Assembly: GCA_036337435.1 (NCBI GenBank)
Contig: JAYZEG010000070.1
Coordinates: 1-21,124, forward strand
From: Myxococcota bacterium
GTDB taxonomy: Bacteria; Myxococcota_A; Bradymonadia; UBA7976; UBA1532
Length of the DNA: 21,124 nucleotides
Direction: 5' to 3'
Of the stretch, positions 3,798 through 19,786 are shown in pieces (the first letter of the stretch is position 1; every line of letters starts with the position of its first letter). The position numbers and the translations under genes are program-made. Under the pieces are notes generated by a model, which worked only from the letters and a program-made list of their open reading frames with translations, searched no databases and had not been told where the DNA came from.

Positions 3798-4174
3798 TCT
3801 TTGTGACCTAGGTGGGCGACTAGGCTGGCGCACTTGGCCTGTCGAGTTTTGATCTCCGTTAAAATCCGCTCGATGACCACGGCTGCGCGGCTGTTGAGAT
3901 ATTTACTCTCGGCAGCCTCATGACACCGAGTTGCGAGGTCTGAGGCTCTGGGAGCAAGTTTTTTTAGTACCCTGTGACATTTCTTGTTCAAGCGCTGGAT
4001 GGTGCCGATGTGTCGTTCTGCGCGGACCGCTATGCCTTTCTGCTTGGCTGACATTGCGGCCTTGAGGGCTGTTACACAAGGTTGTCGTTCGCTGTCCTTG
4101 GCTTGACTACGGGCATTCAGTGGATTGAATAACAATGCCATCAACAGACCCAACTGGCTCAAGTTTCTGTTCAT
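3794..4174 (-). CDS. Small basic secreted hypothetical protein (126 aa, 4 Cys)
   Basis: Signal-peptide-like N-terminus (MNRNLSQLGLLMALLFNPLNARSQA). ATGA overlap with the acylase stop (4171-4174). Its TAG shares the CTAG at 3794-3797 with the convergent gene's TAG. Confidence 0.6.
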   Translation of the reverse strand: MNRNLSQLGLLMALLFNPLNARSQAKDSERQPCVTALKAAMSAKQKGIAVRAERHIGTIQRLNKKCHRVLKKLAPRASDLATRCHEAAESKYLNSRAAVVIERILTEIKTRQAKCASLVAHLGHKD

Positions 4175-7100
4175 TCATTGTACTCCAATTCTGAACTGGG
4201 AGAGAATGCAAGTCGTCCAACGCTGCCATTAACGACATCGGCGACATGGAAGCGCATTGGCACGGTTTCGTTGGCGAGCCAAAGGGCAAGTTGGTCGGCG
4301 AAATGGGGTGAATTGAAGTCCCCCGATTGGCCGCCTGGAAGGATGTTACGTCCCTTGACCTCACCGGCTTTTAGTCCGATGACCATTCGCATCACCGGAC
4401 CGTTCTTGTGTCTGAACGAGCCAGACATGCCAGGATTTGCGGCATCGACCGCCCATTGGTCTCCTCCACGCGGAAACCATTTGAGAGACCGCCTCGGATC
4501 ATCATTTGTTAAGCGTGTTTGAAGGGGGAGTGTCGCAGTCGTGATGGCAAAGACGTCCAATACGCTTTCGAAAGCGGGGCTATCCGTTACGAAGTCCGCA
4601 AGGAGTGACTCGAATCGAGCTTGATGTCGCATGCCCCAAAGCCAATTGCTCATCTCTTGAGTGCCAAAGCCGCCATCGGACCCGTTCTCAGTGCTTGGGC
4701 CGCTCAAGAAACGGTCTGTCTCTTCCAGCGCAAGCAACATCACCTCAGTGCTGGTCTCCACTTGGTCGGTGCCGATTCGATCAAAGAAAACCGATTCCCC
4801 AGTTTCATCAATCCAGCTGCTGTGCTGCTTGGGATTGTCAGGTCCTCGCCCGTCCAGAAAACGTTTAAGAGCAATAATTTTGTATTGTTCTTGCGGAAGT
4901 GTCCAAGCGTTATCTACCCCTTCATCATCCCACGTCAGGTTCAGGAATGACCGAATCCAAACATTGAAGATCATGGTCGCTACGGCGGCAGCCCGATCGG
5001 CATCGCTTGGTGCGTCATAAAAGGTTTCCACGCCCGATGGTGTATCACATCCGGTCCTTATCCAGTCTTCTATCCGTTGTCGATATTCAGCCAAGCGCGT
5101 TTCGCTGAGCTCCGTTATCCTTCTGCGGAATTGTGCATCGGACAGGGCAGAGTCGATAGCTCGGATCAGATAGGGCGCGAAGATTTCTCCGAGCCGAGAG
5201 GTGCGTTCTGCTTGGATCTTGGTCATAGACTCTACATTGACTTGTCCGGCGTCCAGTTGAGACTCGAGTGCCCGTGCGATGGAGTGGGCACGGGTGGAAT
5301 TCCAAGGGCCTCCGATATATCTTGGATCATCGAATAAAGCCCCGTTGTGAGTTGCCCCGGCCGGGTCATTATTTGCAGCGACGAGATAGCCGGTCTCAGG
5401 GTTTACCGCCTGGGGAATCTCGTCGAATGGAATGACACACTGATACGGCTTGTCGTTTTTGCTTTCATCTACGCTGCCGTTTATCGTTGGTATATTGAAT
5501 CCGCCGTAGCGTTTCCCATCTAACAAGAATCGTGGATGAGCATCGACCATCCACCGACCATCGTCATCGCGTTCGAGATAGGAGCGGCATGGAAATCCTT
5601 GATATGAACTAAAGAAAATATTGCCATCTTTATCACCGCCCGCTGTATAGAGTCCGTTGCCAACGAGACCTTTCATACTCTCGCGCAGCTCCTCCGCTGT
5701 CTTCGAGAAGCCAGCCTGGTTGGCCGCGTCTAGATAGGTCGTGCCATCGAAGGCGGTATAATCGAAGCTGATCGCCGAGATCACCCCATCGTCGTCTGTA
5801 TCCCCAGGTATGACCCGGCGACCAATGGCTTGGAATACATACGATGGGCCGCCATCTTCGGTGGGTTCTATACCTTCAATCTCAGTGATTAGACGCCCGT
5901 CGAAGGTCTGATATCGGCTGTGTGTCAACTGTCGACCCTGGCTGCCAAGTGCAGGCACATCCGCCACTTGATAGGTTTCGTCTATTCTGACTAGGGGGCG
6001 CCACTCTCCTTGGAAAAATGAATGGGTCGGGCGCCCAGAGGGGTCGAGCTGCAACGATTCAGCATACCAATCGACTGTGTCCGCATAGGGATTGACTTGG
6101 CTCCACGCAACATGCCCATTTGTACCAGCACCAAGAACGGGCAATTGCGCCATAAGTATCCCTACTTGCCGATTGTCTTCCTCGCCGTAAACAGAGGTAT
6201 CGAGACCGACCAGATAGGTGACCGGCGGCACGGACAATGGAAGATGTCCATCCCCGGCGACCAATGTAAATCCCTCCTCGGTTTTTGAGCCCGAGACGGC
6301 CCATACATTCGACCCAATGCCTTCCCGTGTTCGGCGCATAAGCCGTTGCTCGATGGTCCAAAGCTGAGTCGATAGGCCGACGAGCAACTTCCTCATCGCT
6401 GACCCTGAGCGTCCATCGGGTGAGGATGGCATTCTGGGTGCGGGAAGGGCGGTGTCGGTTGGTAACCGTCCATTGAGCCCAAAGCCAGTCGTGGTTGAAT
6501 AGGGAAGTAGCGGGCTTAAGTCACCGAGGACGTCACGAAGGAAGCCTGAACGTCGTTTGTCTGAGAACGGTGCATCCTCAAAGAGGGTGTTGTGATTTAG
6601 GACGGCCGCACTGCGCTGAATGTCGCTGGTGTCGAAGGTGGTTTGATACATTACGACAGCCGCCATGGCTGTCATGTCTCGTAGGGTCCAGTCTTCAAGG
6701 AGGTCTGATGGGCTGGCCGCCAATAGGCCTGATGCCAAACTGAACTCGATGGGCGGGGATAAGATGCCTGCTCTTACCGCGTCTAAGTAGGCGTTGATTC
6801 CATCTACCACTGATCCCAAGTAGCTTCTCATGTCCAAAGACATGCCCTCGTCCAATTGTTTGGCGACAAAAGGAATGCCCGTTAATCGAGCGTCGATATC
6901 GCTTTCCAGTGCCAAATCACCCAAAAGGGCACTGATGGTGCCGAGACCCAGCCGACGTTGCATATCCATAATAAAATATCGATCACGAGCAAGAATAAAT
7001 CCGAGAACTCGACCCAGGTCGCTTCGGCTTTGCGCATACAGATTGGGTGCCCCACCCTCGGTTACGAGCACCTGAACGGGATAATCAAGACCTGGAAGGC

Positions 7101-7296
7101 CCCACGCCTCCGTGAGGGGGACTGATTCGATCATTGTTTTTGGGTCTGAACGGTCGTCGTCGGCGTCTGGTCTCAATGACAGGTCGGTTAGGACGGAGAG
7201 ATCACCCATACCTCCGTCAGTCCTGGTTGGACCTGTATCGGACGAACCGCAGCCTGCGCTTGCGGCAACCATCATCACTAAGAGGCGATAACTCAT
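4171..7296 (-). CDS. Penicillin acylase family Ntn-hydrolase (peptidase S45), probable lipoprotein
   Basis: Alpha-subunit motifs (GFILARDRYFIMDMQRR, GINAYL); nucleophile motif GIG|SNVWAVSG with the Ser codon at 6310-6312; DGHL, GTNGHVAWS, NPETGYLVAANN, PGGQSG..SPHFADQLALW. Start placed at ATG 7296 because it overlaps the upstream stop (ATGA) and gives a lipobox-like ASAG|C. Confidence 0.9.
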   Translation of the reverse strand: MSYRLLVMMVAASAGCGSSDTGPTRTDGGMGDLSVLTDLSLRPDADDDRSDPKTMIESVPLTEAWGLPGLDYPVQVLVTEGGAPNLYAQSRSDLGRVLGFILARDRYFIMDMQRRLGLGTISALLGDLALESDIDARLTGIPFVAKQLDEGMSLDMRSYLGSVVDGINAYLDAVRAGILSPPIEFSLASGLLAASPSDLLEDWTLRDMTAMAAVVMYQTTFDTSDIQRSAAVLNHNTLFEDAPFSDKRRSGFLRDVLGDLSPLLPYSTTTGFGLNGRLPTDTALPAPRMPSSPDGRSGSAMRKLLVGLSTQLWTIEQRLMRRTREGIGSNVWAVSGSKTEEGFTLVAGDGHLPLSVPPVTYLVGLDTSVYGEEDNRQVGILMAQLPVLGAGTNGHVAWSQVNPYADTVDWYAESLQLDPSGRPTHSFFQGEWRPLVRIDETYQVADVPALGSQGRQLTHSRYQTFDGRLITEIEGIEPTEDGGPSYVFQAIGRRVIPGDTDDDGVISAISFDYTAFDGTTYLDAANQAGFSKTAEELRESMKGLVGNGLYTAGGDKDGNIFFSSYQGFPCRSYLERDDDGRWMVDAHPRFLLDGKRYGGFNIPTINGSVDESKNDKPYQCVIPFDEIPQAVNPETGYLVAANNDPAGATHNGALFDDPRYIGGPWNSTRAHSIARALESQLDAGQVNVESMTKIQAERTSRLGEIFAPYLIRAIDSALSDAQFRRRITELSETRLAEYRQRIEDWIRTGCDTPSGVETFYDAPSDADRAAAVATMIFNVWIRSFLNLTWDDEGVDNAWTLPQEQYKIIALKRFLDGRGPDNPKQHSSWIDETGESVFFDRIGTDQVETSTEVMLLALEETDRFLSGPSTENGSDGGFGTQEMSNWLWGMRHQARFESLLADFVTDSPAFESVLDVFAITTATLPLQTRLTNDDPRRSLKWFPRGGDQWAVDAANPGMSGSFRHKNGPVMRMVIGLKAGEVKGRNILPGGQSGDFNSPHFADQLALWLANETVPMRFHVADVVNGSVGRLAFSPSSELEYNE

Positions 7297-7865
7297 ATTT
7301 GATCCAGTGGGTGTGATTTTCGATTTTTCTCTTTGGTCCGGTGAGCGTGCCCTTTGAACTTGCGCCCCGCACCATGGCGCCAAGTCCACATAGAGAGAAT
7401 GAGAAGAACATAGAGCGTGAGTTGTGGTCGGGCCAAATCGGTCGGTGTTGATGATACGCAGCTACATGATGGTGCCGTTGGTGCTCGACTCAGGCCCGCC
7501 TGAGTTGTCTCCTGCGTTGCCGCGACATGAGTTTTCGGCAACATGTCGGCCTGGGCTGCGAGCGGGGGTGGCATTAAGTGCGGAGGCAGCAGTGACCGCC
7601 TTGAGCTCGTTTTCGGCCCGTAATTCGTAGCCAAGTAATCCAAGATTTTTGCTTCGTCGCTGGGTGGAATTTGCCATAGATTTTGGGTTGCCTGCATCCA
7701 ACGGATAGTCTTTTTCCATTCGGATCGGGTTCCTCGGTTCTGTGTAATGAGACTTGCGGAGTGACAGCTCGTACAATGCGCCTTGACGAAAAGAACACCC
7801 TCTGATTCAGCCAATGCTGTAGGCGCACTTTGAATTATAAAATAAAACGCGATGGTGGCGGTCAT
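7293..7865 (-). CDS. Monoheme cytochrome c, probable electron acceptor of the sulfite dehydrogenase (SorB/SorU-like), with C-terminal membrane anchor
   Basis: ATG 7865 in an ATGA overlap with the Mo-enzyme stop; signal peptide ending ALA|E; CTSCH at 7761-7775; WKKTIRWMQ...ILDYLATNYGP; C-terminal SCSC, hydrophobic stretch and basic tail. Confidence 0.8.
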   Translation of the reverse strand: MTATIAFYFIIQSAPTALAESEGVLFVKAHCTSCHSASLITQNRGTRSEWKKTIRWMQATQNLWQIPPSDEAKILDYLATNYGPKTSSRRSLLPPHLMPPPLAAQADMLPKTHVAATQETTQAGLSRAPTAPSCSCVSSTPTDLARPQLTLYVLLILSMWTWRHGAGRKFKGHAHRTKEKNRKSHPLDQI

Positions 7866-9121
7866 GAAGCCTCGATCCGGATGGCGACTCGATGGCACGC
7901 ATTATTCAAGTAACCTTTTGGATTCCATCCCGGCAAGACCATTGGTTGGCTACGGCCATCTTCGTCTGTTGCGCGAGCCCATATCTCGTAATAACCAGGT
8001 CCCATCTTGGGAAGTGTAAGGCGAAACTGCTGCCAACAGTATCGATTGAGGGGTCGATTCAATTTGGCGCGAATCCATGTTTGGCCAAAGTCCACCGAGA
8101 TATGTAGTTCTGCGACGGGTCCAGTCCCACTCCAGGCGTGCCCCTCAACGTCGACGGGGCTCGCCTCTTTTAAAACGGTGCCAGAGGCGGGCCTTGTGAT
8201 GAGAGATTTGACTGGCATGTCTTCGATGATGCACATGTCAGTGTCCTCAACCGGAGAGCCTGGTGCCACCGGACGGCATGGGATGCGATACGATTTTTCG
8301 CCCATTTTAGGCCCGTCGTGTACTTTGTTTCGAATGAGAAGCCCCGTCAGCCATTTGCCAGAACATGAGCCTGGAAAGCCAGGGACGACAAGCCGTAACG
8401 GATAGCCATGCAAACGAGGGATGGGCTCATGATTCATGCTCCATGCGATCATGCAGTCATCGCTCATCGCCTTTTTCAGCGGGATGCCCCTTGATATAGG
8501 CTTCTTCCCATCCTGCCCACTGAGATGGCTGTCTGCGCCAACATACGCGACGTAGATGGCGTCGCTCGTCATTTCGACCTGTTCCAGCAACGCTTTCAGC
8601 AGGATGCCAGTCCAGGTAACACAGCCGACCGCTCCCGTCGTCCACTGGTTGCCCTTTGCACTGGGGGTGAATTCGTTCCGGCCATTGCCAGCGCATTCGA
8701 GGACATAGGTCCGGGTCACGATCGAGAAGCGAGCTTTCAATTCAGCAATGGAAAAGGTGACGGGTTTCTTGATCGATTCACCCTCAATGATGAGACGCCA
8801 ATCTTCGGCAGACCCTGCCTTCGGGGGGATTCCATTGTTGCGCACAAAAAGGTGGCTTGCCGGCGTGACCTGATGGGTGAGAAGATGCGCTGGCGTTTCA
8901 ATATTAAGTGGCCGCTCGTTTAAGACGGTCAGTCCGCTTATTTTACTGGACGGTAAGTTCGGTGGCCTTGGCCCAGCGTGGACGCTGCTGACGAACTCGA
9001 AATGGTCATGTCGCTGGCCAAAAAGTGAGAAAAGTGCCATTGCCAAGCCACCCTGAATGAGCGTCCGCCGGCTCATTGATGACCGTTGAGTACCGCCTTG
9101 GCTTGTGTGCTGATTGGTCAT
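7862..9121 (-). CDS. Sulfite oxidase family molybdoenzyme (SorA/SorT/SoxC-like sulfite dehydrogenase), Tat-exported
   Basis: Twin-arginine SRRTLI signal; LFVRNNG; Mo-ligand motif LECAGNGR; HGYPLRLVVPG; SGKWL; dimerisation domain (VKSLIT, GHAWSG, SVDFGQTW, WARATD..G..QP, WNPKGYLNN). Confidence 0.92.
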   Translation of the reverse strand: MTNQHTSQGGTQRSSMSRRTLIQGGLAMALFSLFGQRHDHFEFVSSVHAGPRPPNLPSSKISGLTVLNERPLNIETPAHLLTHQVTPASHLFVRNNGIPPKAGSAEDWRLIIEGESIKKPVTFSIAELKARFSIVTRTYVLECAGNGRNEFTPSAKGNQWTTGAVGCVTWTGILLKALLEQVEMTSDAIYVAYVGADSHLSGQDGKKPISRGIPLKKAMSDDCMIAWSMNHEPIPRLHGYPLRLVVPGFPGSCSGKWLTGLLIRNKVHDGPKMGEKSYRIPCRPVAPGSPVEDTDMCIIEDMPVKSLITRPASGTVLKEASPVDVEGHAWSGTGPVAELHISVDFGQTWIRAKLNRPLNRYCWQQFRLTLPKMGPGYYEIWARATDEDGRSQPMVLPGWNPKGYLNNACHRVAIRIEAS

Positions 9122-9141: not shown

Positions 9142-10227
9142 TTAGATCATTACCTGAAGAAGTCCGAGTGAAAAGACAGACAAAACAAACGCCGAGAAGA
9201 AACCAGCGTACAGTGCTTTCAGGCCGATATTCTTGAGCGTTCTGAAGTGAACGCCGAGTCCTACCCCAGCCATGGCCATCGTGACAAGAAAAAGGGATGC
9301 TGTCGTGACAAGACTCTTCATCGATAGCGGAATGGCTGCCGCTGACCAAAATGCACTGTCCTTGAGATGGACGGTGAAATCGGGCAAAAGATTTGCCGAA
9401 TTGGCAATGGCGAGAGCGATAAATCCAAGGATGAAGGGCGGAAACAGTGTGGTCCACTGGGCCCGTCTTGGTACATATGCTTCTTCCTTTCGCCGTTTTT
9501 CTCGCGCATACCATACGCCGAGAAGAAGGAGCATGGGTGCAAGCAGGAGAACGCGGACAAGTTTTACGATCACTGCGATTTCGCCAGCAGATTCGCTGTA
9601 AGCGAAGCCGGCTGCCATGACTTGGGGCGTCGCCTGGATTGCAATGCCTGCCCAAATCCCAAATTCATTGTCTGTTAGCCCCAAAGCATGGCCAAGTGGG
9701 GGGAACACGAAAATCGCGGCGAGTCCAAAAATTGTAATGGTGGTTATCGCGAAGGCGGTGTCATTGTCATCTGCCTCGATGGATGGTGCCGAGACAGCGA
9801 TTGCGGTTCCGCCACAGATGGCCGTTCCAATGCCGATCAGCAGTCCAAGCTTTTGCCCGACGCCTAGCTGCTTGCAGAGCCATAGGGTCAGGGCCAATGC
9901 AACAATGACGCAGAGGGTTGATAGCAGTAACGCTTGTCCAGACACTTTCAACACGTAGTTGAAGTCGAGTTTTGCACCCATGAGTACAATGGCAAAGGGA
10001 AGCAGCCTCTTGACTGAAAACTTAATCCCGCTTCCTGCTGTTCTTGGCAAATACAGGGTGTTGCGAACAAGCATGCCGAGCACAATGGCGATTAGCAATG
10101 CGTCGATGGGATGACGACCATCGATGGTAAATGGTGCAAATGGCAGTTTGTTTATGTAGAGCGCGAGCGCAGCGATTGTCGCTGTGAGTGCAGTGCCAAG
10201 CCAGATGCTTTGTCCTTGGTCAGCCAC
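9142..10227 (-). CDS. YeiH/UPF0324 putative sulfate (sulfite) exporter family membrane protein
   Basis: Many hydrophobic segments; family motifs AIVLGM, LIGIGTAICGGTAIAV, FGIWAG.AI..TPQV.AAG, VKLVRVLLLAP, MAMAGVGL. GTG start 3 bp after the cysK stop. Confidence 0.88.
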   Translation of the reverse strand: MADQGQSIWLGTALTATIAALALYINKLPFAPFTIDGRHPIDALLIAIVLGMLVRNTLYLPRTAGSGIKFSVKRLLPFAIVLMGAKLDFNYVLKVSGQALLLSTLCVIVALALTLWLCKQLGVGQKLGLLIGIGTAICGGTAIAVSAPSIEADDNDTAFAITTITIFGLAAIFVFPPLGHALGLTDNEFGIWAGIAIQATPQVMAAGFAYSESAGEIAVIVKLVRVLLLAPMLLLLGVWYAREKRRKEEAYVPRRAQWTTLFPPFILGFIALAIANSANLLPDFTVHLKDSAFWSAAAIPLSMKSLVTTASLFLVTMAMAGVGLGVHFRTLKNIGLKALYAGFFSAFVLSVFSLGLLQVMI

Positions 10228-10230
10228 GGG

Positions 10231-11184
10231 TCAAATAATGAAATCCAGCCCGGGAGCTGGACCGAGGGGGTTGTCCTGGCTGAGATAACGCTCCCAACTG
10301 TCACAAATCACAGTGACAACGGTTTTACCGGGTCCGATGGCCGCGGCGAGTTTGACTGCGATAGCCACATTGGCTCCGGCTGACAGGCCTGCCAAAATGC
10401 CTTCTTCGCGAGCCAGTCGGCGAGTCATCTTATAAGCGTCAGTGCCATCACAGGTATAGATTTCGTCGATCACAGTGCGGTCTAGATTCGATGGGATAAA
10501 GCCGGCACCGATCCCTTGGATTGAATGCGGTCGTACTTGCCCTCCGCCAATGGCTTGGGAATCAAAGGGTTCGATGGCAACGATCTTGGTTGCCGGATAC
10601 TCGGCCTTGAAGACGCGCCCCACACCTGAGACCGTGCCGCCGGTGCCAACGCCGCTGACGAATACATCGGGAGCGGCCCCGAGGGCTGCGACGATTTCTT
10701 TTGCTGTCGTTTCCGAATGTGCATCTGGATTGGCCGGGTTCGAGAATTGCTGCGCCATAAAACACCGAGGATTACTGTCCACGATTGCTTGAGCACGCTC
10801 TATGGCCCCCTGCATGAGCTTGCGAGCAGGTGTCAGGATGACCTGAGCTCCAAGATGCTCCATAAGTTTGCGTCGTTCGTTAGACTTGTCATCGGGCATC
10901 GTGATGATCAGTTTGTAGCCTTTGACGGCCGCAACCAGTGCTAATCCAATCCCGGTGTTCCCGCTGGTCGGTTCAACGATGGTATCTCCAGCTTTGAGCA
11001 CCCCTTTTGCTTCAGCGGCCTCGATCATCGCAAGGGCGATACGGTCTTTTACGCTGCCCCCGGGGTTGCTTGACTCAAGTTTAACCAAAACCGTCGCTGA
11101 GGGGCGTTCGACAACCCGTTTCAGTCGCACCATTGGCGTCTGTCCGACCAACTCAAGTACATTGTCCGAAATCAAGGGTTTCAC
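10231..11184 (-). CDS. cysK: Cysteine synthase (O-acetylserine sulfhydrylase, CysK-like)
   Basis: GQTPMVRL; KLESSNPGGSVKDRIA (PLP Lys); EPTSGNTGIGLA; QQFSNPAN; GVGTGGT; HSIQGIGAGF; ERYLS. Confidence 0.9.
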   Translation of the reverse strand: MKPLISDNVLELVGQTPMVRLKRVVERPSATVLVKLESSNPGGSVKDRIALAMIEAAEAKGVLKAGDTIVEPTSGNTGIGLALVAAVKGYKLIITMPDDKSNERRKLMEHLGAQVILTPARKLMQGAIERAQAIVDSNPRCFMAQQFSNPANPDAHSETTAKEIVAALGAAPDVFVSGVGTGGTVSGVGRVFKAEYPATKIVAIEPFDSQAIGGGQVRPHSIQGIGAGFIPSNLDRTVIDEIYTCDGTDAYKMTRRLAREEGILAGLSAGANVAIAVKLAAAIGPGKTVVTVICDSWERYLSQDNPLGPAPGLDFII

Positions 11185-11290: not shown

Positions 11291-13117
11291 CTATTCGGCA
11301 TCTCCCTCGGCGTCTATCCCGGCATCGGCTACGTCATCTACATCAGACTCGCTGTCTTGCGCGTTACCCATGTCTGGATTATCCGGTTCTGCAGCACCAC
11401 AGGTCTCAACACCCGTCTCGGGAAGGGCGTCCAAATACTCGACGTTCATAGATGTGATTTGGACCTGACTCGCACCTGGGTTCAGGAATAGCGTATGTAA
11501 CTTCTGGCCCGAATCCGGCAGACAGTTTGCAGCGAGGGTGAGCGCTTGATTACTGCCATTCAAAGCCGGGGTAAATTTATATTCGTAGTCAAATTGAACA
11601 GGCCGACCAGCAGTGACTGCAATGGGGGTGTCTTTTCGAACCATTAAGCTCAGCGGTGACGCACTGCCCCCGCCTCCGAAGCCAGGAACTGGTCCTTGGC
11701 CACCCGCAGAAACTGACCATGACAGGCGTACGGCGCTTGTTCCGTCTTGAGGTCTTACGTGAAATTGCTTAAAGGCCGGAACACCATCTACAAAGCCGCT
11801 GACGCCAGCCGATTGGGTGCCTTCGACTAAATGTGGAAGAGCATTTCGTCCAGCGTTGAAGCGAGACCAGCCCAAAGAACGTTCACATGAGCCGAAACCA
11901 TGGCGGGCAAAAATATCGGCCGCTTGAGCTTCAACGTCAGGCCCAAAGTCAGCAGCTACACCTAACATGAGGGCTGCAGCGGCGGCATGATTTGTCCCGT
12001 AAGTGAATTGTTCGAGAGCCAGGTAGGCGATGGATTCGGCGATTTCTGACCCGACGGCTTCTCGCAGCGACCAGAGCGTGCTTCCAATGATTTCTCCCTG
12101 CGCGTGCACTTCGTCGACCGTGTCATCGGGACATATTTTGACGTTACTCAAGTCTCTCAAGCCGAGACCCATGACGCCCACATATTTGCCGATAACCGGG
12201 TCGTTAGAGATTGACGCTGCGAAAAAATCGGCGAGCCCCTCGTTCATTGAACGTGGGGACATATCAAGTCCGTATTCATCAAGAACAGCACCCACCGAGA
12301 GTCGATTGGTGCCGACGACCGCGTGTGTGTACTCGTGATAAATGACTCGACTGTCATAGGCGAAATCGAGGTCCCCTTGAAAAAAAACAATGCTGTCGCT
12401 GTCGCGCGGCGGGAGTCCGAACTGAGACGCAAATTGTCGCCACGCTTCTTTCGGGAAGAAGGCAGCATTTGACAGGCCGATCCAGCCATCAGGACCTGGA
12501 TTCAGAAAGGGCAGTGGTGGGTCAACTTGGATTTGCACGTTAACCAGGGCTGGCAGCGGGTAATCGAGTTCAGCGAAGCCATGTACATCCTTGAAGTAAT
12601 CATGGGCCTGGTTGACATGATGATACATCATGATTTCCGCAAATTGGTCATTGGGGTCACTATCCTGGTCTGGTGGTGCGATGCTCAGGTAATGCCCATC
12701 GGGGTCTGGTCTGACGGTCTGCACCTCGTTACACAGAGCGATGGAGATGTTGAAACCCCCAACGTCTGGCATTGCAACGACGCCACCCTCTTCGTTGAGG
12801 CAATTGAATACTTGGACCCAGGGGCTGGTCAGAGCCCCTTCAGGATGGGCCGATTTCTCGACTGTCACCTCAGACAGGGTGCCCTCATCGGTCGTCGGGT
12901 CATTGAGATAAACCGAAGCGAGTGGCTCGTCGAGCAGAGGGTAGTTGATCTGGGGCTCCTGGCCTCCAAGATCGATTGGCCTGATAGCCGCATCGGCACT
13001 CAATGATGCATCAGGTGTTAAGATGACGATGCCCTCATTTGCCGGCTTGTTGTCTATGCAGCCCGACGCCAGGGCGAGGGAGAGGAACGCTGCAGCACTC
13101 TTCAGATGTATGTTCAT
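11291..13117 (-). CDS. Zinc metalloprotease, thermolysin/fungalysin-like (M4/M36) catalytic domain, lipoprotein
   Basis: ATG 13117 after GAGAGA; lipobox LASG|C; MMYHHVNQAHDYF; HEYTH at 12323-12337; third ligand motif NEGLADFFA; EVHAQGEIIGSTLWSLR; acidic C-terminal tail. Confidence 0.85.
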   Translation of the reverse strand: MNIHLKSAAAFLSLALASGCIDNKPANEGIVILTPDASLSADAAIRPIDLGGQEPQINYPLLDEPLASVYLNDPTTDEGTLSEVTVEKSAHPEGALTSPWVQVFNCLNEEGGVVAMPDVGGFNISIALCNEVQTVRPDPDGHYLSIAPPDQDSDPNDQFAEIMMYHHVNQAHDYFKDVHGFAELDYPLPALVNVQIQVDPPLPFLNPGPDGWIGLSNAAFFPKEAWRQFASQFGLPPRDSDSIVFFQGDLDFAYDSRVIYHEYTHAVVGTNRLSVGAVLDEYGLDMSPRSMNEGLADFFAASISNDPVIGKYVGVMGLGLRDLSNVKICPDDTVDEVHAQGEIIGSTLWSLREAVGSEIAESIAYLALEQFTYGTNHAAAAALMLGVAADFGPDVEAQAADIFARHGFGSCERSLGWSRFNAGRNALPHLVEGTQSAGVSGFVDGVPAFKQFHVRPQDGTSAVRLSWSVSAGGQGPVPGFGGGGSASPLSLMVRKDTPIAVTAGRPVQFDYEYKFTPALNGSNQALTLAANCLPDSGQKLHTLFLNPGASQVQITSMNVEYLDALPETGVETCGAAEPDNPDMGNAQDSESDVDDVADAGIDAEGDAE

Positions 13118-13145
13118 TGGTGTCTCTCTGGGGTCCGAAAGTCGA

Positions 13146-13784
13146 TTAGTGAAGGAGGGCATTGCGTATGCTCAAAAGGGCACCCGTTGATGCATCTATG
13201 CGAACCTTGACGTGGCTTACCATGGGTAGGGGAGCAACATTGAATTCATAAATGGGGGTGGCGAAAGCTCCGGTTGTCGTCAAACCGAAAACCGCTTCAA
13301 TGGCCTTCATGCCAACCGGCTTTGAACCGAAGCGGGCCTCGAGTGCGCTTGACACAGCGGCTCGCGCCTGTCGTTCATCGATAACGGCTCGCGCTGCCCC
13401 CGTTATGGGGACGCAGTCCGTATTGAATGCAATGATGTGGCCATCTCCATCTACGGTCACTGTTGCCGAACGGTCTAAAACGATGGTGTTGTCATGCCAT
13501 TGACGGTACCGAAGCACGGTGCGCCCCTTGGTTGTGACCTCAGATTCAAAGCGGAGTCCAGGTCCGCCTGTGAGCAGGCTAAAACGATCGAGAAAGTAGC
13601 GTCCTCTCTCTCTGTTCGTTTTTCCTTGCGTAGGCAGTTTTATCCTTGTGATGACTCGCGCTTGGCCGGAGGTTGTGGACCAGACGATACGGGCATTGGC
13701 CAGTGTCTCTAGTTGGGTGCGTACCTCAGTTGGGGCCAGGGGCGTTCCAAGAAAGGTTCCAATGATAAAGAAAAAGGGCAGCAT
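13146..13784 (-). CDS. Stand-alone FTP + PepSY protease propeptide-like protein
   Basis: GGAGG RBS 4 nt before ATG 13784; hydrophobic signal MLPFFFIIGTFLG; FTP-like TVLRYRQWHDNTIVLDRSATVTVDGDGHI; PepSY-like IDERQARAAV...YEFNV...VRIDASTGALL; no HExxH. Confidence 0.75.
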   Translation of the reverse strand: MLPFFFIIGTFLGTPLAPTEVRTQLETLANARIVWSTTSGQARVITRIKLPTQGKTNRERGRYFLDRFSLLTGGPGLRFESEVTTKGRTVLRYRQWHDNTIVLDRSATVTVDGDGHIIAFNTDCVPITGAARAVIDERQARAAVSSALEARFGSKPVGMKAIEAVFGLTTTGAFATPIYEFNVAPLPMVSHVKVRIDASTGALLSIRNALLH

Positions 13785-14097
13785 GATTCCTCCGTTCAAC
13801 TCGACCCGATGAGCAAAATGACGTGTCGTATTGGTCACGCTGATTGGGTCAGCGCACAAAACGATGCGCTGCCGATACAGCAACTCTCGGTCCGGTTACT
13901 GGAAAAAAGATAAAGAGTCTTTTTGAGTGTCTCAATAACCGGTTTCCTATGGGTACTGCTAGCCCCTTTGTCAGTTTAAAATTTTGTGTCTCACCCTATG
14001 CGACGACTCTATTTTTCGGGATGAAAATTTCGCGGTGAGTTAAGATTGTTGGGGAGCCGTTTTAAAGACCTGAGCTGTCTGGCCGATGTATTAGGTG

Positions 14098-16605
14098 ATG
14101 AACAAGAAACTCAAAGTACGGGTTTTTAAGTTTGGCGGCTCAAGTTTATCGAGTGCGGAACGCATCGTTGCAGCTGTCGGGCTTGTCGAGGCCGGCCTCC
14201 GCACGAGTAACGTGATTACAGTGACATCGGCGATGGGTGGTACGACGGATCGGCTGAGTCATCTGGCAAGCTCCGGCGTGTCTTCGACAGAATGGGGTCG
14301 AACTGTTGATTCATTGAGTGACCAGTACCTTGACGTCGTGACCCGGCTTGAGCTCGCTGACTTCTATCGAAACCGCGTATCTCAGCTTTTGGACCGCTTG
14401 CGAAGCCTTTATCCTCAACAAGGGCCGACGGATTCCGAGAGCCGGAGAGATGAGATCATGGGATTTGGGGAACGGCTTACAGCCCCCCTTTTTGCGGGCC
14501 GTTTGGCGAAGACCGCGAGCGGGTCAAATGCGGCTTTGCTCGATGGGACCGATTTCTTTCTGACAGACGCTAACTTTACCGATGCATGGCTGGTCAAAGA
14601 TGAGACCTATGCCGCTGTGTCGAGGGCCCTTGAACCTCATCTGGTTCCGGCGCGCCCGGTCGTGGTGACGGGCTACTGTGGGCGAACCCATCTTGGAGTA
14701 CCGACGACTTTAGGTCGGGGTGGTTCAGACTCGACTGCAACGGTCATTGCAAGAGCTGTAAATGCTGAATCAGTCACCTTGTGGTCAGATGTTCCCGGTG
14801 TCATGACCGCGGATCCTCGGCGGGTTGGGGATGCCCGTACTCTGCCGCATCTGTCCTATGGCGAGGCTGCTGAACTGTCTTTCTATGGTGCGAAAGTGCT
14901 TCATCCAAGGGCAATGCAGCCTGTCTCAGAAGGCTGCATCCCCGTTCTCTGCAAGAGCACCTTTGCGCCTAACGAGCAAGGCACTTTAATCGACAGTCGT
15001 GGGCCCGGAGGCGTCGACCCAGTCAAAGCATGTAGCCTCGAATCAGGATACAGAAGCATGTCGATCATTGGACCCGGTATGGTCGGACTTTCTGGTGTGG
15101 CAGCCCAGGTTTTGGCCGCACTCGCCGCGGTAGAGATTAATGTCGTCATGCTCAGTCAGGCTTGCTCTGAGTTAGCTTTGACGGTGGTGGTACGGGGTAA
15201 GGACTCAGACCGTGCGAGGCGCGCACTGGAGGCGGCCTGTGAGCGGGACGTTCTCAAGGACGCCTCGGCGAGTCTTAGACTTAGGCCGGAACCCATCAGT
15301 CTGATCGCGGCAGTTGGAGCAGACATGGCGCGTGTTCCCGGTGTGGCGGGTCGATTCATGACCGCTCTCGGAAAAGCCAAAGTGAATGTTGTTGCCATTT
15401 CACAGGCTGATACTGAGCTGAACATAACAGCGGCAATCGAAAGCCAATCGGGTGACGTTGCCCTGCAGGCGATTCACGAGGAGTTTGGGCTGGGTCGACG
15501 GCCAACTATCAATGCGAATCAGCAAGGGTGTGACCTTTTGCTGCTCGGCATGGGTCAAATTTCAACCAAGTTTGTTGGCCTGGTGCAGGACCAAATTCGC
15601 TCAGGTGTTGGGCTCAATATTGTTGCTGTCGCTGACACGAGCGGCTTCTTATTTCGACCCCCTGGCGTCGATCCAGCTGAACTCAATTCGGCCTACTTTG
15701 GCAAAAAAGAAGGTCGGCAACTTAAGTCACTTGGACATGTCGTTGACGGTGATAGCGAGTCGTTGATTCGAAAGGCCCTTCAATATCGATTGAATTCGCC
15801 AATCGTGGTGGACATGACGGCAGATTGTGGTCTGGCGGATGCGTTGGTGACTGCCAAGAGGCTTGGAGCCCATGTCGTAAGCGCGAACAAAGCACCCTTC
15901 GCAGGCTCCATAAGTCAATTCAATGATTTATTTGAAGGCCAGGGGATGACTTGCATTGAGGCGACGGTTGGCGCAGGCCTGCCCGTCATCGATACGTTGC
16001 GTAGCCTTCGAGACACAGGTGATTCGGTTCAACTGATTGAGGGCTGTTTTTCGGGTACGCTTGGATATATCATGACCCGGGTCGAAGAGGGGATAAGCCT
16101 GTCAAAAGCTGTGCTCGAGGCACTCGATTATGGTTATACTGAGCCAGACCCTGCCATTGATTTGAGCGGATTAGACGTGTTTCGAAAGGCCGTCATATTG
16201 GCGCGGGTGGCCGGCTGGATACCTGGTCAGTCTGCGGACGATTGTCGTCCCTTTATTGCGGACTTGGGTACGGGTCTCCCCAAACAGGTACTGATGAGAC
16301 GTATAGAGGGGCAAAATTCGGTGTTCGCAAAATCCGTAGAGGCGGCGGCGAGTCGAGGGTCGCGGCTGAGATATGTTGCCACGGTTGACCCAACGGGGGT
16401 CAAGGTTGGGCTCAAAGAGTTAGATGGGACTCACCCACTCGCCCAGCTGAAAGGGACTGACAACATGGTCGTTTTCTCAACGGCACGTTACAGCGAGCGC
16501 CCCCTGGCCATAATGGGGCCAGGTGCCGGGCCTGATGTGACAGCCATGGGCGTCATGGCCGATGTCTTAAGGATCATACGGCAGTCTCGAGTGACCTATG
16601 CCTGA
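14098..16605 (+). CDS. thrA: Bifunctional aspartokinase / homoserine dehydrogenase
   Basis: Kinase motifs FKFGGSS, SAMGGTTD, TTLGRGGSD, WSDVPGVMTADPR, ELSFYGAKVLHP; two ACT-like domains; dehydrogenase motifs VVSANK, EATVGAGLPVI, GYTEPDP..DLSGLDV.RK, GPGAG..VTA. Start is ATG 14098 or GTG 14095. Confidence 0.93.
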   Translation: MNKKLKVRVFKFGGSSLSSAERIVAAVGLVEAGLRTSNVITVTSAMGGTTDRLSHLASSGVSSTEWGRTVDSLSDQYLDVVTRLELADFYRNRVSQLLDRLRSLYPQQGPTDSESRRDEIMGFGERLTAPLFAGRLAKTASGSNAALLDGTDFFLTDANFTDAWLVKDETYAAVSRALEPHLVPARPVVVTGYCGRTHLGVPTTLGRGGSDSTATVIARAVNAESVTLWSDVPGVMTADPRRVGDARTLPHLSYGEAAELSFYGAKVLHPRAMQPVSEGCIPVLCKSTFAPNEQGTLIDSRGPGGVDPVKACSLESGYRSMSIIGPGMVGLSGVAAQVLAALAAVEINVVMLSQACSELALTVVVRGKDSDRARRALEAACERDVLKDASASLRLRPEPISLIAAVGADMARVPGVAGRFMTALGKAKVNVVAISQADTELNITAAIESQSGDVALQAIHEEFGLGRRPTINANQQGCDLLLLGMGQISTKFVGLVQDQIRSGVGLNIVAVADTSGFLFRPPGVDPAELNSAYFGKKEGRQLKSLGHVVDGDSESLIRKALQYRLNSPIVVDMTADCGLADALVTAKRLGAHVVSANKAPFAGSISQFNDLFEGQGMTCIEATVGAGLPVIDTLRSLRDTGDSVQLIEGCFSGTLGYIMTRVEEGISLSKAVLEALDYGYTEPDPAIDLSGLDVFRKAVILARVAGWIPGQSADDCRPFIADLGTGLPKQVLMRRIEGQNSVFAKSVEAAASRGSRLRYVATVDPTGVKVGLKELDGTHPLAQLKGTDNMVVFSTARYSERPLAIMGPGAGPDVTAMGVMADVLRIIRQSRVTYA

Positions 16606-17530
16606 GCGCATCCGGGCCTTTGCGCCTGCGACCGTCGCGAACGTTGGATGCGGCTTTGATTCTTTGGGCTTTGCGGTTGAGGGTCTCGGCGATGAGGTGA
16701 CGGCGGTGCGGCGCTCTCAGGCGGGCGTTTCGATCGGCGACATCGAGTCGACCGTTGACCTTCCCATGTCTAGCGACAGCAACATCATTGGCATTGTCGC
16801 AAAGAGTGTATTGAAGCGGGCGTCCGCCAAATTTGGTGTCGAGTTATTCTTAAAAAAAGGATTGGGGGTTGGGACCGGTTTGGGGAGTTCGGCTGCCAGT
16901 GCGGCGGCAGCGGGATACGCGGTGAATGAGCTGCTTGATACGCCTTTGTCACAAAAGGAACTCCTGGATGCGATCCTCGATGGTGAGGAAGCCGTCTCAG
17001 GTCGTCACGCGGATAACGCCGCGCCAGCACTGCTCGGAGGACTGGTTCTCATTACTGGGCAAGAGTTAAGCGGGCTTCGGGTTTTGCCAGTGCCCGATGG
17101 CTTACAAGTGGTCTTGGTCTCTCCTGACTTTCGACTGGATACGCGAAAAGCCCGTTCGGTTCTGCCATCCGAGGTGCGCTTGGGTGAGGCTCTGAAACAA
17201 AGCCGTAATTTGGCAGCCTTGGTGGATGCTTGCCATCGTAATGATGCGTTGGATTTTCTGTCCGCTGCTCGGGATGAATTGATAGAGGCGTATCGTTTGC
17301 CCCTCATACCGGGGGCTTTGGAGGCGACGCAGCGGTGCAGAGAATTGGGCTATGTTGCGACGTTTTTGAGCGGATCCGGGCCAACCATAGCTGTTCTCTG
17401 CCTCGATTCCGCAAATATTGACGAGATCCGGCTTGCTATCGAGGGCGCGTTTTCAGGCTCCGGTTTAACCAGTTTCTGCCATGTGTCCTCGGTCGGAGCA
17501 GCCGGCGCACGGCGATTGGAGCCGACATGA
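16598..17530 (+). CDS. thrB: Homoserine kinase (GHMP family)
   Basis: APATVANVGCGFDSLG, GTGLGSSAAS, HADNAAPALLGG, LSGSGPT; 8-bp overlap with the thrA end. Confidence 0.93.
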   Translation: MPERIRAFAPATVANVGCGFDSLGFAVEGLGDEVTAVRRSQAGVSIGDIESTVDLPMSSDSNIIGIVAKSVLKRASAKFGVELFLKKGLGVGTGLGSSAASAAAAGYAVNELLDTPLSQKELLDAILDGEEAVSGRHADNAAPALLGGLVLITGQELSGLRVLPVPDGLQVVLVSPDFRLDTRKARSVLPSEVRLGEALKQSRNLAALVDACHRNDALDFLSAARDELIEAYRLPLIPGALEATQRCRELGYVATFLSGSGPTIAVLCLDSANIDEIRLAIEGAFSGSGLTSFCHVSSVGAAGARRLEPT

Positions 17531-18702
17531 AATGCCAGCTGAGTTGTGTTGAATGTGGTCAGACCTATGCGCCACTTCAGGTCCGCTATCGTTGTGATTG
17601 TGGTGGCACCCTCGATGTCCTTCACAAGGACACGGCACTGAATCAGGTTCCACTCGAGACTTTTGACAGACGGTTGGCGTCTAAATTGCCAGCAGACAAG
17701 TCTGGTGTGTGGCGGTTTCGTGAATTCATTCTGCCTGTTGATGAGACTGACATTTGTACACGTGGAGAGGGGAATACCGGACTTTATCGGAGCCAGACAC
17801 TAGCCAATTACGTCGGGCTGTCCTCTATCGCTTTGAAACACGAGGGAGAAAATCCGACCGGTTCGTTCAAAGACCGTGGAATGACGGTCGGAATCACCAT
17901 GGCAAAAAAATTAGGGTTTGAGAGGGTCGCCGTGGCGTCCACCGGCAATACGAGTGCCTCTCTTGCGGCCTATGCGGCCATGGTTGGCTTACAAGCGGTT
18001 ATTTTTATTCCCAACGGTCAAATTGCCCTGGGCAAATTGGGGCAGGCGTTGGCATACGGCGCACGAACGCTGCAAATCGATGGGGATTTTGATGACGCGA
18101 TGGCACTGGTGGAATCATTCAGTGCCAACGAGGGTCTGTATTTGCTCAATTCGGTCAATCCTTTTCGCATTGAAGGCCAGAAGGCGATCGGTTTTGAAAT
18201 TCTCCAAGATTTGGACTGGCGAGTGCCCGATTGGATCGTTGTGCCTGGTGGGAACTTGGGGAACAACTCAGCGATCACAAAAGGAATGATTGAACTCTAC
18301 GAGCTTGGACTTATCGACAGATTACCACGGGTTGCGGTGATCCAGGCCGACGGGGCCAACCCGCTGCATGTGGCTTGGACAGGCGGGGGGGCCCTACAGC
18401 CTCAAAAAGCAAAAACGTTGGCGACTGCAATTAAAATCGGGACTCCCATTTCATTTACCAAAAGCCTTCGTGGTTTAAGGCGTGTAAACGGCTGGGTCGA
18501 CTCGGTCTCCGATGACGATATTCTGGAGGCGAAAGCTGTCGTCGATTCGAGCGGTATCGGTGCTGAGCCTGCGTCATGCGCATCGATTGCGGGTGTCCGA
18601 AAGATGGTTCGTAATGGGATTATAGGGGCGTCAGATAAAGTGGTTGCCGTGTTGACTGGCCATGTTCTAAAGGATCCGGGCATCGTCTTTGACTTTAAGT
18701 AA
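17527..18702 (+). CDS. thrC: Threonine synthase (fold-type II PLP); C-terminus possibly truncated, in-frame coding-like sequence continues to 18795
   Basis: N-terminal CVEC...CDCGG; GEGNT; KHEGENPTGSFKDRG; ASTGNTS; NSVNPFRIEGQK; VPGGNLGN; ATAIKIG; VLTGHVLKDP. ATGA overlap with thrB. Confidence 0.93.
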   Translation: MKCQLSCVECGQTYAPLQVRYRCDCGGTLDVLHKDTALNQVPLETFDRRLASKLPADKSGVWRFREFILPVDETDICTRGEGNTGLYRSQTLANYVGLSSIALKHEGENPTGSFKDRGMTVGITMAKKLGFERVAVASTGNTSASLAAYAAMVGLQAVIFIPNGQIALGKLGQALAYGARTLQIDGDFDDAMALVESFSANEGLYLLNSVNPFRIEGQKAIGFEILQDLDWRVPDWIVVPGGNLGNNSAITKGMIELYELGLIDRLPRVAVIQADGANPLHVAWTGGGALQPQKAKTLATAIKIGTPISFTKSLRGLRRVNGWVDSVSDDDILEAKAVVDSSGIGAEPASCASIAGVRKMVRNGIIGASDKVVAVLTGHVLKDPGIVFDFK

Positions 18703-18910: not shown

Positions 18911-19786
18911 ATGAAACTCTGTATCGCAACATGCTCGAATTTGCCCGACTGGGAACGAGATGACGAGCCATTCTTTCAGGCGCTGGAAGATGCGGGGGTG
19001 GCGCATCAACTTAGAGCTTGGGATGAGCCCGATGTGGACTGGGGGCAGTTTGACGCTTGCCTGATTCGAACGACATGGGACTACATGGAACGAAAGGATG
19101 AGTTTGTTCGTTGGGCTCAGGCTGTTGAGTCCGTTACCGAGCTATTTAATCCGGCGTCGGTTGTGAACTGGAATACCGACAAACGTTACTTGTTGGATTT
19201 AGAACGGGCCGGAGTTGAAATCGCACCAACCATCTGGCTCGAGAAAAATAACCCATATGATCTGGCAAAATTGATGCAATCGCGGGGCTGGCGACATGGT
19301 TTTCTAAAGCCGACCGTCGGCGCATCTGCACGAGAGACCCTTCGCTTCGAGCCGGCCGGGTATGCTCACGCCCAAGTCTTTCTGGATAGAGTTCTGGCAA
19401 GAGAGTCCATGATGCTGCAGCCCTATCTACAGAGCGTTGAAACAAGTGGGGAACTGTCGGCTGTATACTTCGATGGCCAATTTTCCCATTCTGTTCAGAA
19501 GATCCCAGTGCCAGGCGATTACCGAGTCCAAGACGATTATGGTGCGACCGACTTTGCAGTGGAGATGGATGCCGCCCTAAGGGCCAAAACCGAGTCTACC
19601 CTGATGGTCGCACAGCGTTTACTGGGTCTTGAAAAGGCACTTCTGTACGCTCGGGTTGACTATATTCAACTTGATTCAGGACAACATGTCCTCAATGAGC
19701 TTGAGTTGGTCGAGCCGTCCCTCTTTTTTAGACACTCGCCCCATGGGGCTGGTCGATTGGTCGCTGCTCTCGTTAAGCGTCTTTAG
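18911..19786 (+). CDS. ATP-grasp enzyme (RimK/glutathione-synthetase-like fold, DcsG-like subfamily)
   Basis: G-rich RBS before ATG 18911; IRTTWDY, WNTDKRYLLDL, KPTVGASA, GELSAVYFDGQFSHSVQK, DYRVQDDYG, YARVD, NELELVEPSLF. Confidence 0.75.
   Translation: MKLCIATCSNLPDWERDDEPFFQALEDAGVAHQLRAWDEPDVDWGQFDACLIRTTWDYMERKDEFVRWAQAVESVTELFNPASVVNWNTDKRYLLDLERAGVEIAPTIWLEKNNPYDLAKLMQSRGWRHGFLKPTVGASARETLRFEPAGYAHAQVFLDRVLARESMMLQPYLQSVETSGELSAVYFDGQFSHSVQKIPVPGDYRVQDDYGATDFAVEMDAALRAKTESTLMVAQRLLGLEKALLYARVDYIQLDSGQHVLNELELVEPSLFFRHSPHGAGRLVAALVKRL

Follow-up and report, generated by a model that had tools for sequence, protein, structure and literature searches.

The DNA analysed here (the window) is a stretch of 21,124 nucleotides from a Myxococcota bacterium (contig JAYZEG010000070.1 of assembly GCA_036337435.1). 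On its minus strand, at 10231-11184, lies a paralogue of cysK with a GTG start and a TGA stop. The open reading frame (ORF) translates to a protein of 317 amino acids whose C-terminus reads ...VICDSWERYLS-QDNPLGPAPGL-DFII. This tail resembles the end of the serine acetyltransferase CysE. It marks a group that we call the DFII clade and is the subject of this report. A transporter gene of the YeiH family follows directly downstream. CysK is a much-studied enzyme and a target for antibiotic adjuvants.

The window protein scores 398 bits against the NCBIfam cysK model TIGR01139 (cut-off 350.95), which makes it a member of that family, and 390.3 bits against the cysKM subfamily model (cut-off 344.15). 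It stays below the cut-offs of the cysM models, with 271.3 bits against 394.2 for TIGR01138 and 277.5 against 413 for NF008735. The Pfam PALP domain (PF00291) matches residues 11-295, and the closest solved relatives are CysK chains (2egu, 2e-98). An AlphaFold2 monomer model has a mean predicted local distance difference test score (pLDDT) of 90.9. In Foldseek it matches S. aureus CysK (8srt and 8sru) with a template modelling (TM) score of 0.93-0.94 and a root-mean-square deviation of 1.2-1.5. The lysine that forms the Schiff base with pyridoxal phosphate (PLP) is Lys46, within S-V-K-D-R (codon at 11047-11049, minus strand). It is invariant and aligns with the catalytic Lys of the solved CysK chains. 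The Asn loop T73-S-G-N-T77 (10954-10968, minus strand) shows no variation, or almost none, when 109 clade members are aligned; its role in CysK, to hold the carboxylate of the substrate or peptide, is taken from H. influenzae CysK (PMC9547175). K46, T73-T77, the glycine-rich phosphate loop GTGGT (G180-T184) and S268 are all kept, both in the 109 clade members and in the solved CysK chains. The Ser equivalent to S268 contacts the pyridine nitrogen in CysK. The gene product appears to be a catalytically intact CysK-type PLP enzyme.

The TIGR01139 match stops at residue 303, so the 14 residues beyond it fall outside the family model. None of the solved chains aligns past this residue either. On the minus strand, 10234-10278 holds the last 15 codons (Q-D-N-P-L-G-P-A-P-G-L-D-F-I-I) and 10231-10233 the TGA stop. 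The initial annotation, made from the sequence alone, had read a Pro/Gly linker and a terminal D-F-I-I after ERYLS, and the translation of the ORF agrees with it. The tail can be divided into three parts. The proximal part, S-Q-D-N-P (residues 302-306; 10267-10281, minus strand), is conserved, its consensus across the clade being S-x-[D/E]-[R/K]-P. Next comes a variable Pro/Gly spacer, here L-G-P-A-P (residues 307-311; 10252-10266, minus strand), which is 1-6 residues long across the clade and covers the unconserved positions -7 to -11. The terminal motif is G-L-D-F-I-I (residues 312-317; 10234-10251, minus strand), with the clade consensus [G/A/S]-[L/V/M]-D-F-[I/M/V]-I.

Homologues were taken as the best 120 clusters, the window's own included, from a search of 5.8 billion proteins. 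The ending [D/V]-F-[I/M/V/T/L]-[I/L] closes 110 of these 120 nearest clusters over an identity span of 59-100%; the other ten are P0041 and nine proteins ending in ...ERYLSVNL. Across the alignment of 109 tail-bearers F315 never varies, and conservation reaches at least 90% at D314 and I317. At position -2, the 110 tail-bearers have I in 92 cases, M in 11, V in 5 and T in 2. The stretch from P306 to the motif varies in both sequence and length. A terminal D-F-x-I that stays fixed while its linker changes had been named as a test by the initial annotation, and this is the pattern observed in the nearest clusters and in the alignment. Among 126 distinct tails the length after R-Y is 13-18 residues, with S at +2 in 110 and P at +6 in 111; part of this set was selected by pattern, which biases the last four residues and leaves the remainder informative.

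The motif is confined to this group within the CysK-like proteins that we compared. Nine of 149 other CysK-like representatives (50% clusters) have a terminal Ile, and none of the 149 combines it with D-F at -4/-3. The tailed clade is a single entry (P0037) in the 50%-identity library, and for every other representative the alignment ends near residue 302-305. A maximum-likelihood tree was built from 207 CysK-like sequences, with the CysM-like paralogue of the window genome as its root; in it the 110 tail-bearers form one clade with a support of 0.996 and no tail-less member inside it. The ...ERYLSVNL group is its sister. Both synonymous codons are used at D, F, I and I across loci, which indicates that the constraint acts on the peptide. 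The conservation of the tail is more than chance. A hairpin resembling a terminator within the sequence that codes for the tail (10263-10242, minus strand) was also considered and rejected as a chance feature. It is not kept even in L183, a relative at 88% identity, most loci have z near 0, and the scan total of 7 does not exceed that of shuffles (4.5 +/- 2.1).

The CysK active site is a known socket for peptides of this type. The native C-terminal tetrapeptide of M. tuberculosis CysE is DFSI, which was crystallised in CysK1 (entry 2Q3C; PMC9547175). In the H. influenzae system the terminal Ile gives approximately 80% of the CysE-CysK interaction energy; Thr69 and Thr73 hold its carboxylate, and Phe144 and the PLP its side chain (PMC9547175). 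The residues listed for the H. influenzae peptide site are V41, K42, 69-TSGNT-73, M96, M120, 143-QF-144, 175-GVGT-178, 228-GIGA-231 and S272 (PMC9547175). Their counterparts in the window CysK are V45, K46, T73-T77, M96, M124, Q146-F147, G178-T181, G224-A227 and S268. All of them are invariant or nearly so in the 109 clade members, and the socket is therefore intact. The counterpart of M120 is M124, and M120 of CysK disengages the CysE inhibitor in favour of the substrate (PMC7948407). On the ligand side, DFII differs from DFSI at one position, with three of four residues equal. A free C-terminal Ile with an aromatic residue at -3 is presented by ...G-L-D-F-I-I-stop (compare DFSI, MNLNI and YGDGI). 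The description of the tail as CysE-like in the initial annotation is thus borne out by the bound DFSI of 2Q3C and by the listed cleft residues, all of which are kept here.

Several residues that are rare in other CysKs mark the clade: D98, R121, L123, R140, C141, C245, W274, W297 and P306. By sequence position R121 and L123 (Gly in 80% of other CysKs) flank M124, and D98 is near M96. W297 takes the place of Gly in GERYLS. From their adjacency in sequence, some of these signature residues may contact the tail. C141 and C245 are kept almost without exception in the tailed clade and seldom occur outside it; at the position of C245, 74% of other CysKs have a Val. The two cysteines might act together as a redox or persulfide pair.

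As an accessory paralogue, the tailed CysK belongs to a clade that is rare and patchily distributed. A match reaching residue 317 was found in only 2 of 40 relatives, both of the same genus as the window. The exact DNA pattern of the tail, which does not capture DFMI and similar variants, was present in 4 of the 401 genomes sampled from the phylum, and these four belong to three families. The few members with a named source are Myxococcota (Haliangiales, Kofleriaceae). The tail was found in none of 80 loci retrieved from genome contigs with generic CysK patterns. Additional CysK-type genes above the family cut-off are present in every carrier genome checked (G000, which is the window's own, G001, G003, G257 and G328). 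Besides the tailed enzyme, the 87% complete window genome encodes a canonical CysK on contig 11 (426 bits, ending ...ERYLSTPLYRELIT), together with a CysM-like protein and a cystathionine beta-synthase-like protein with CBS domains. In the genome of another relative (G007, contig 160, 41533-44309), three CysK-like genes lie next to one another, one of them with an in-frame TGA.

The single CysE homologue of the window genome ends in ...PPDLDFRSGNSSTEPSEDAG and has no terminal Ile. The initial annotation had suggested comparing the tail with this CysE end, and the comparison proved informative: a single CysE homologue without a terminal Ile is found in all five carrier genomes. A terminal Ile is likewise lacking in the CysE of 27 of 30 loci of relatives, with or without a tailed CysK, the exceptions being L215, L218 and L220. 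In P. aeruginosa, CysE1 lacks the terminal Ile and does not bind CysK, while CysK still binds an Ile-ended peptide (PMC12895370). From this precedent and the CysE ends observed here, we infer that the classical cysteine synthase complex does not form in the carrier genomes, in which case the tail would be the sole CysE-type plug there. The CysE proteins of this lineage (L001:1036-2049, on contig 58 of the window's own genome, and L192-L221) have a conserved ...E-S-P-P-x-L-D-F-R... near the end, followed by 5-25 mostly charged residues without a terminal Ile. The L-D-F core resembles the CysK G-L-D-F-I-I, and this likeness may be either coincidence or a sign of shared origin.

The gene downstream of the tailed cysK (9142-10227, minus strand) encodes a YeiH-family transporter of 361 amino acids, and its GTG start lies 3 nt past the cysK stop. 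It belongs to the Pfam family PF03601 (256.3 bits against a cut-off of 24.5) and falls below the cut-off of TIGR00698 (168.1 against 232.6 bits). The YeiH-family gene is present in a single copy in the window genome. We scanned metagenomes with the degenerate pattern W-[D/E]-R-Y ... D-F-I-I-stop, which is blind to the downstream gene. The scan returned 68 loci, of which 25 are without a CysK or YeiH match and 43 have one or both. Of these 43, 39 hold a CysK ORF and four only a cysK stub beside yeiH. In all 33 loci with at least 250 nt past the cysK stop, a YeiH-family gene follows directly on the same strand. The same order holds in four of four genomes (G000, G001, G257 and G328), the contig of G003 being too short to tell. 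The gap between the two genes is -4 to +42 nt in 21 refined pairs, which suggests translational coupling. The two proteins also diverge in parallel from the window's copies, with identities of 59-88% for CysK and 54-91% for YeiH. A comparison of 49 flanking ORFs from 18 loci, hand-picked from 90 ORFs of 21 loci as closest to the pair, yielded no conserved third neighbour; no family recurs beyond two molybdenum (Mo) oxidoreductase cases. A CysK-YeiH fusion was found in none of 18 long representatives examined. The tail motif of the initial annotation stands, and its account of the tailed CysK missed this strict downstream coupling and, with it, an alternative explanation of the tail.

In Salmonella, YeiH was recently shown to be the chief determinant of sulfite-stress resistance (PMC12880088). 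In Bordetella pertussis, BP2808 is a YeiH-family exporter induced by cysteine (PMC13689094). We considered the YeiH C-terminus as a plug for CysK and rejected it, as YeiH ends are hydrophobic (L, V or G) without a conserved Ile. The predicted periplasmic position of the YeiH C-terminus (PMC12880088) also counters this idea. The idea that sulfite is exported for want of a sulfite reductase was likewise dropped: PF01077 was not found in the 87% complete window genome and is present in the carriers G001 and G003.

The genes that follow yeiH in the window may concern sulfur as well. At 7862-9121 (minus strand) lies a gene for a SorA-like molybdenum sulfite dehydrogenase with a twin-arginine leader (..SRRTLIQGG..) and the domains PF00174 and PF03404. 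It scores 233 bits against the 600-bit cut-off of the SorA model NF052245. We call it SorA-like because only the Mo-oxidoreductase and dimerisation domains are secure. The gene at 7293-7898 (minus strand) may encode a SorB-like c-type cytochrome subunit. This weak assignment (PF09098, 26.3 against 25.2 bits; NF052246 SorB, 32 bits against a cut-off of 93) leans on its position after the SorA-like gene. The SorA-like gene is an optional neighbour, found beside the pair only in the window, L183 and L152 among the fetched loci. Two fusions adjoin the pair in metagenome loci: a Mo-oxidoreductase fused to a c-type cytochrome (L152:2097-3896) and a rhodanese / class-V aminotransferase (cysteine desulfurase-like) / metallo-beta-lactamase protein (L160:2673-5135). 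Both fit a sulfur-handling neighbourhood. The sulfur genes of the window are flanked by a 1072-aa penicillin-amidase-family protein (4171-7389, minus strand) and an M36 fungalysin-like peptidase (11291-13162, minus strand). The amidase and the peptidase flank the pair in G001 too; there, yeiH and the amidase have no SorA/SorB-like genes between them. Further away, at 14095-18702 (plus strand), is a threonine cluster with an aspartokinase/homoserine dehydrogenase carrying ACT domains, a candidate GHMP-type homoserine kinase and a PALP threonine-synthase-like gene. At either end of the window (105-1346, plus strand; 19783-21090, minus strand) lies a gene for a protein with repeated MopE-type putative metal-binding motifs (PF11617).

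We propose, at a probability of roughly 0.4, that the tail is a CysE-mimicking plug for the active site of the same protein species, probably acting in trans. The tail would be a built-in copy of the serine acetyltransferase C-terminus, like the DFSI of M. tuberculosis CysE. The carboxylate of the terminal Ile would sit on the Asn loop T73-T77, and the Phe of F315 would pack in the hydrophobic cleft. The plugged site would be that of the partner subunit or of another dimer, a trans site being most likely since the monomer models leave the tail undocked. The enzyme would rest in the plugged state. O-acetylserine, or the true beta-substituted substrate, would displace the tail by a competitive-allosteric route via Met124, the Met120 equivalent. 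Together with the co-translated YeiH, the CysK would form a two-gene working unit, and from this unit we suggest that the enzyme is probably involved in the chemistry of sulfite or of a related sulfur oxyanion. In the YeiH and SorA-like context the candidate reactions are the formation of S-sulfocysteine from thiosulfate, the use or release of sulfite with cysteate, and plain cysteine synthesis.

Several observations weigh against the proposed self-plugging. In the AlphaFold2 monomer of the window protein, built on the 109-sequence alignment, residues 307-317 have a pLDDT below 50. The same is true of residues 300-304 in the equivalent model of the short-tailed P0069 (304 aa), whose proximal tail is moderately confident (mean pLDDT 67 for residues 291-300). 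The two models count mildly against a strongly encoded docking in cis. They were made without PLP and are uninformative on binding in trans or to another protein, so either a confident cis docking is not encoded or it may be invisible without PLP. An analysis of covariation of tail position -2 with the core was uninformative: DFMI is not marked by any column, and the DFVI members are a single clade. The CysE without a terminal Ile is general in the lineage and is therefore not a specific correlate of the tailed CysK. Finally, the strict YeiH linkage at 33 of 33 loci suits a role of the tail in docking to the transporter just as well.

That docking role is the alternative we take most seriously, although we regard it as unlikely. 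The tail would be a docking peptide that places D-F-I-I in a cytoplasmic groove of YeiH. The result would be a membrane-bound enzyme-transporter pair, with either channelling between the two or CysK as a regulatory subunit. The constant position of yeiH next to cysK on the same strand (including the four stub loci), the short gaps, the divergence of the two proteins in step and the failure to find a third conserved neighbour all speak for it, as does the undocked tail in both monomer models. There is a parallel in plants, where the STAS domain of a sulfate transporter binds cysteine synthase. However, the motif is of exactly the kind that binds the CysK site, and the CysK cleft is kept, so that the YeiH groove would have to mimic it. 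In addition, none of the 18 long representatives is a CysK-YeiH fusion, and operon linkage by itself is no proof of contact. A combination of docking and self-plugging can also be imagined, in which the tailed CysK would be the sensing and gating subunit of YeiH. D-F-I-I would switch between the enzyme's own site when substrate is absent and a cytoplasmic YeiH site once the enzyme has been closed by O-acetylserine or by a sulfur oxyanion adduct. We consider this distinctly improbable. If it held, sulfite export would track the state of cysteine synthesis. It would also make this a moonlighting CysK with both socket and plug, and would give a first mechanistic handle on the control of YeiH.

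Another function for the tail would be that of a lid in cis, which enters its own site in turnover, shields the aminoacrylate and selects the sulfur donor. Such a role would be catalytic and not inhibitory. According to the title of a report by Agren et al. (2009, FEBS Lett), the C-terminus of CysM reportedly protects the aminoacrylate and gives selectivity for the sulfur donor. The final residue of M. tuberculosis CysM is Ala323, and its carboxylate is described as being inside the enzyme's own active site (PMC9547175). The conserved proximal anchor and short spacer of the DFII tail would be hinge-like, and a module that handles sulfite could need to exclude reactive nucleophiles. But the protein is a CysK, scoring 271-278 bits against cysM cut-offs of 394-413, and its motif is like the inhibitory CysE DFSI and unlike an Ala-ended tail. 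The tail is unplaced in the two monomer models, and the shortest tails extend 13 residues past Y300. A cis lid is quite unlikely in our estimate. The tail could also target the housekeeping CysK of the same cell, in parallel to the Ile ends by which CysE, CymR-type regulators and CdiA-CT recruit CysK, and would then couple the two enzymes. Every carrier genome checked offers such a target (for example, the contig 11 protein of 426 bits in G000), no CysE tail competes for it there, and the solved complexes 8zyc and 5xoq show, by their titles, how widely the CysK site is used. On the other hand, the clade's own cleft is intact and has its own adjacent substitutions, which makes self-recognition the simpler view, and the housekeeping cysK is on another contig without gene linkage. 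We rate this target as improbable. We think it very improbable that the conserved end lacks any ligand function in sulfur metabolism and acts, for example, as a stability or degradation signal or as a packing element of the clade. Disordered terminal residues in the monomer models would fit such a role. Yet three of the last four residues hardly vary at an overall identity of 59-70%; this would then be coincidence, as would the free C-terminal position and the match to a known type of CysK ligand.

The CysK socket, this type of plug and the idea of a protein's own tail in the site (M. tuberculosis CysM) are already known. The combination of a plug-type end with CysK itself, its conservation as a clade and the coupling to YeiH are new. 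In the full-text literature, subscription papers excepted, we found no CysK described as carrying a CysE-like tail of its own or as partnered with YeiH. The initial annotation had called the arrangement undescribed, which holds for CysK in this literature and is too broad for the wider family, as the own-tail Ala323 of M. tuberculosis CysM in the active site is described (PMC9547175). Our findings point to a self-gated or transporter-coupled cysteine synthase. A clade of CysK that carries a matching plug would be a natural experiment in enzyme self-regulation. For YeiH, an invariable dedicated enzyme partner suggests what passes through the transporter or what controls it.

The transporter shares the Pfam family PF03601 with Salmonella YeiH. 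In enterobacteria, however, yeiH is paired with the LysR regulator gene yeiE, whereas here it is paired with cysK and the protein stays under the TIGR00698 cut-off. P. aeruginosa and this lineage both have a CysE without the terminal Ile, and the failure to bind CysK, described for P. aeruginosa CysE1, would extend to this lineage. For P. aeruginosa CysK no tail is reported in the excerpt of PMC12895370, whereas the window CysK is tailed. M. tuberculosis CysM and the tailed CysK have the O-acetylserine sulfhydrylase fold in common, and the CysM tail enters its own catalytic site (PMC9547175). CysM belongs to a different subfamily, which uses O-phosphoserine and thiocarboxylated CysO (PMC9547175), and its tail is Ala-ended and described as protective, whereas the window tail is of the CysE type D-F-x-I.

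The CdiA-CT toxin and CymR-type transcription factors use the CysK active site as a protein-docking socket (PMC4961446), and solved CysK complexes with a CdiA toxin (8zyc) and a transcription-factor peptide (5xoq), by entry title, are among the structural matches. These ligands are separate proteins that recruit a housekeeping CysK, whereas here the plug-like end is on the CysK chain itself. In three natural fusion proteins of approximately 960-995 aa (P0122, P0126 and P0142), two CysK (PALP) domains precede a serine acetyltransferase (SATase_N and hexapeptide). They end in Ile (...DTGI, ...DPKI and ...DPQI) and correspond to a covalently tethered cysteine synthase complex. The closest comparison is with the cysteine synthase complex itself (DFSI, 2Q3C; H. 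influenzae ...MNLNI, 1Y7L; S. enterica ...GDGI), which shares the free C-terminal Ile with the window tail. DFSI-type CysE peptides and the window tail also have in common the aromatic residue at -3, the acidic residue at -4 and the receiving cleft residues. In the known complex the plug is on CysE, whereas in the DFII clade the putative plug is on CysK.

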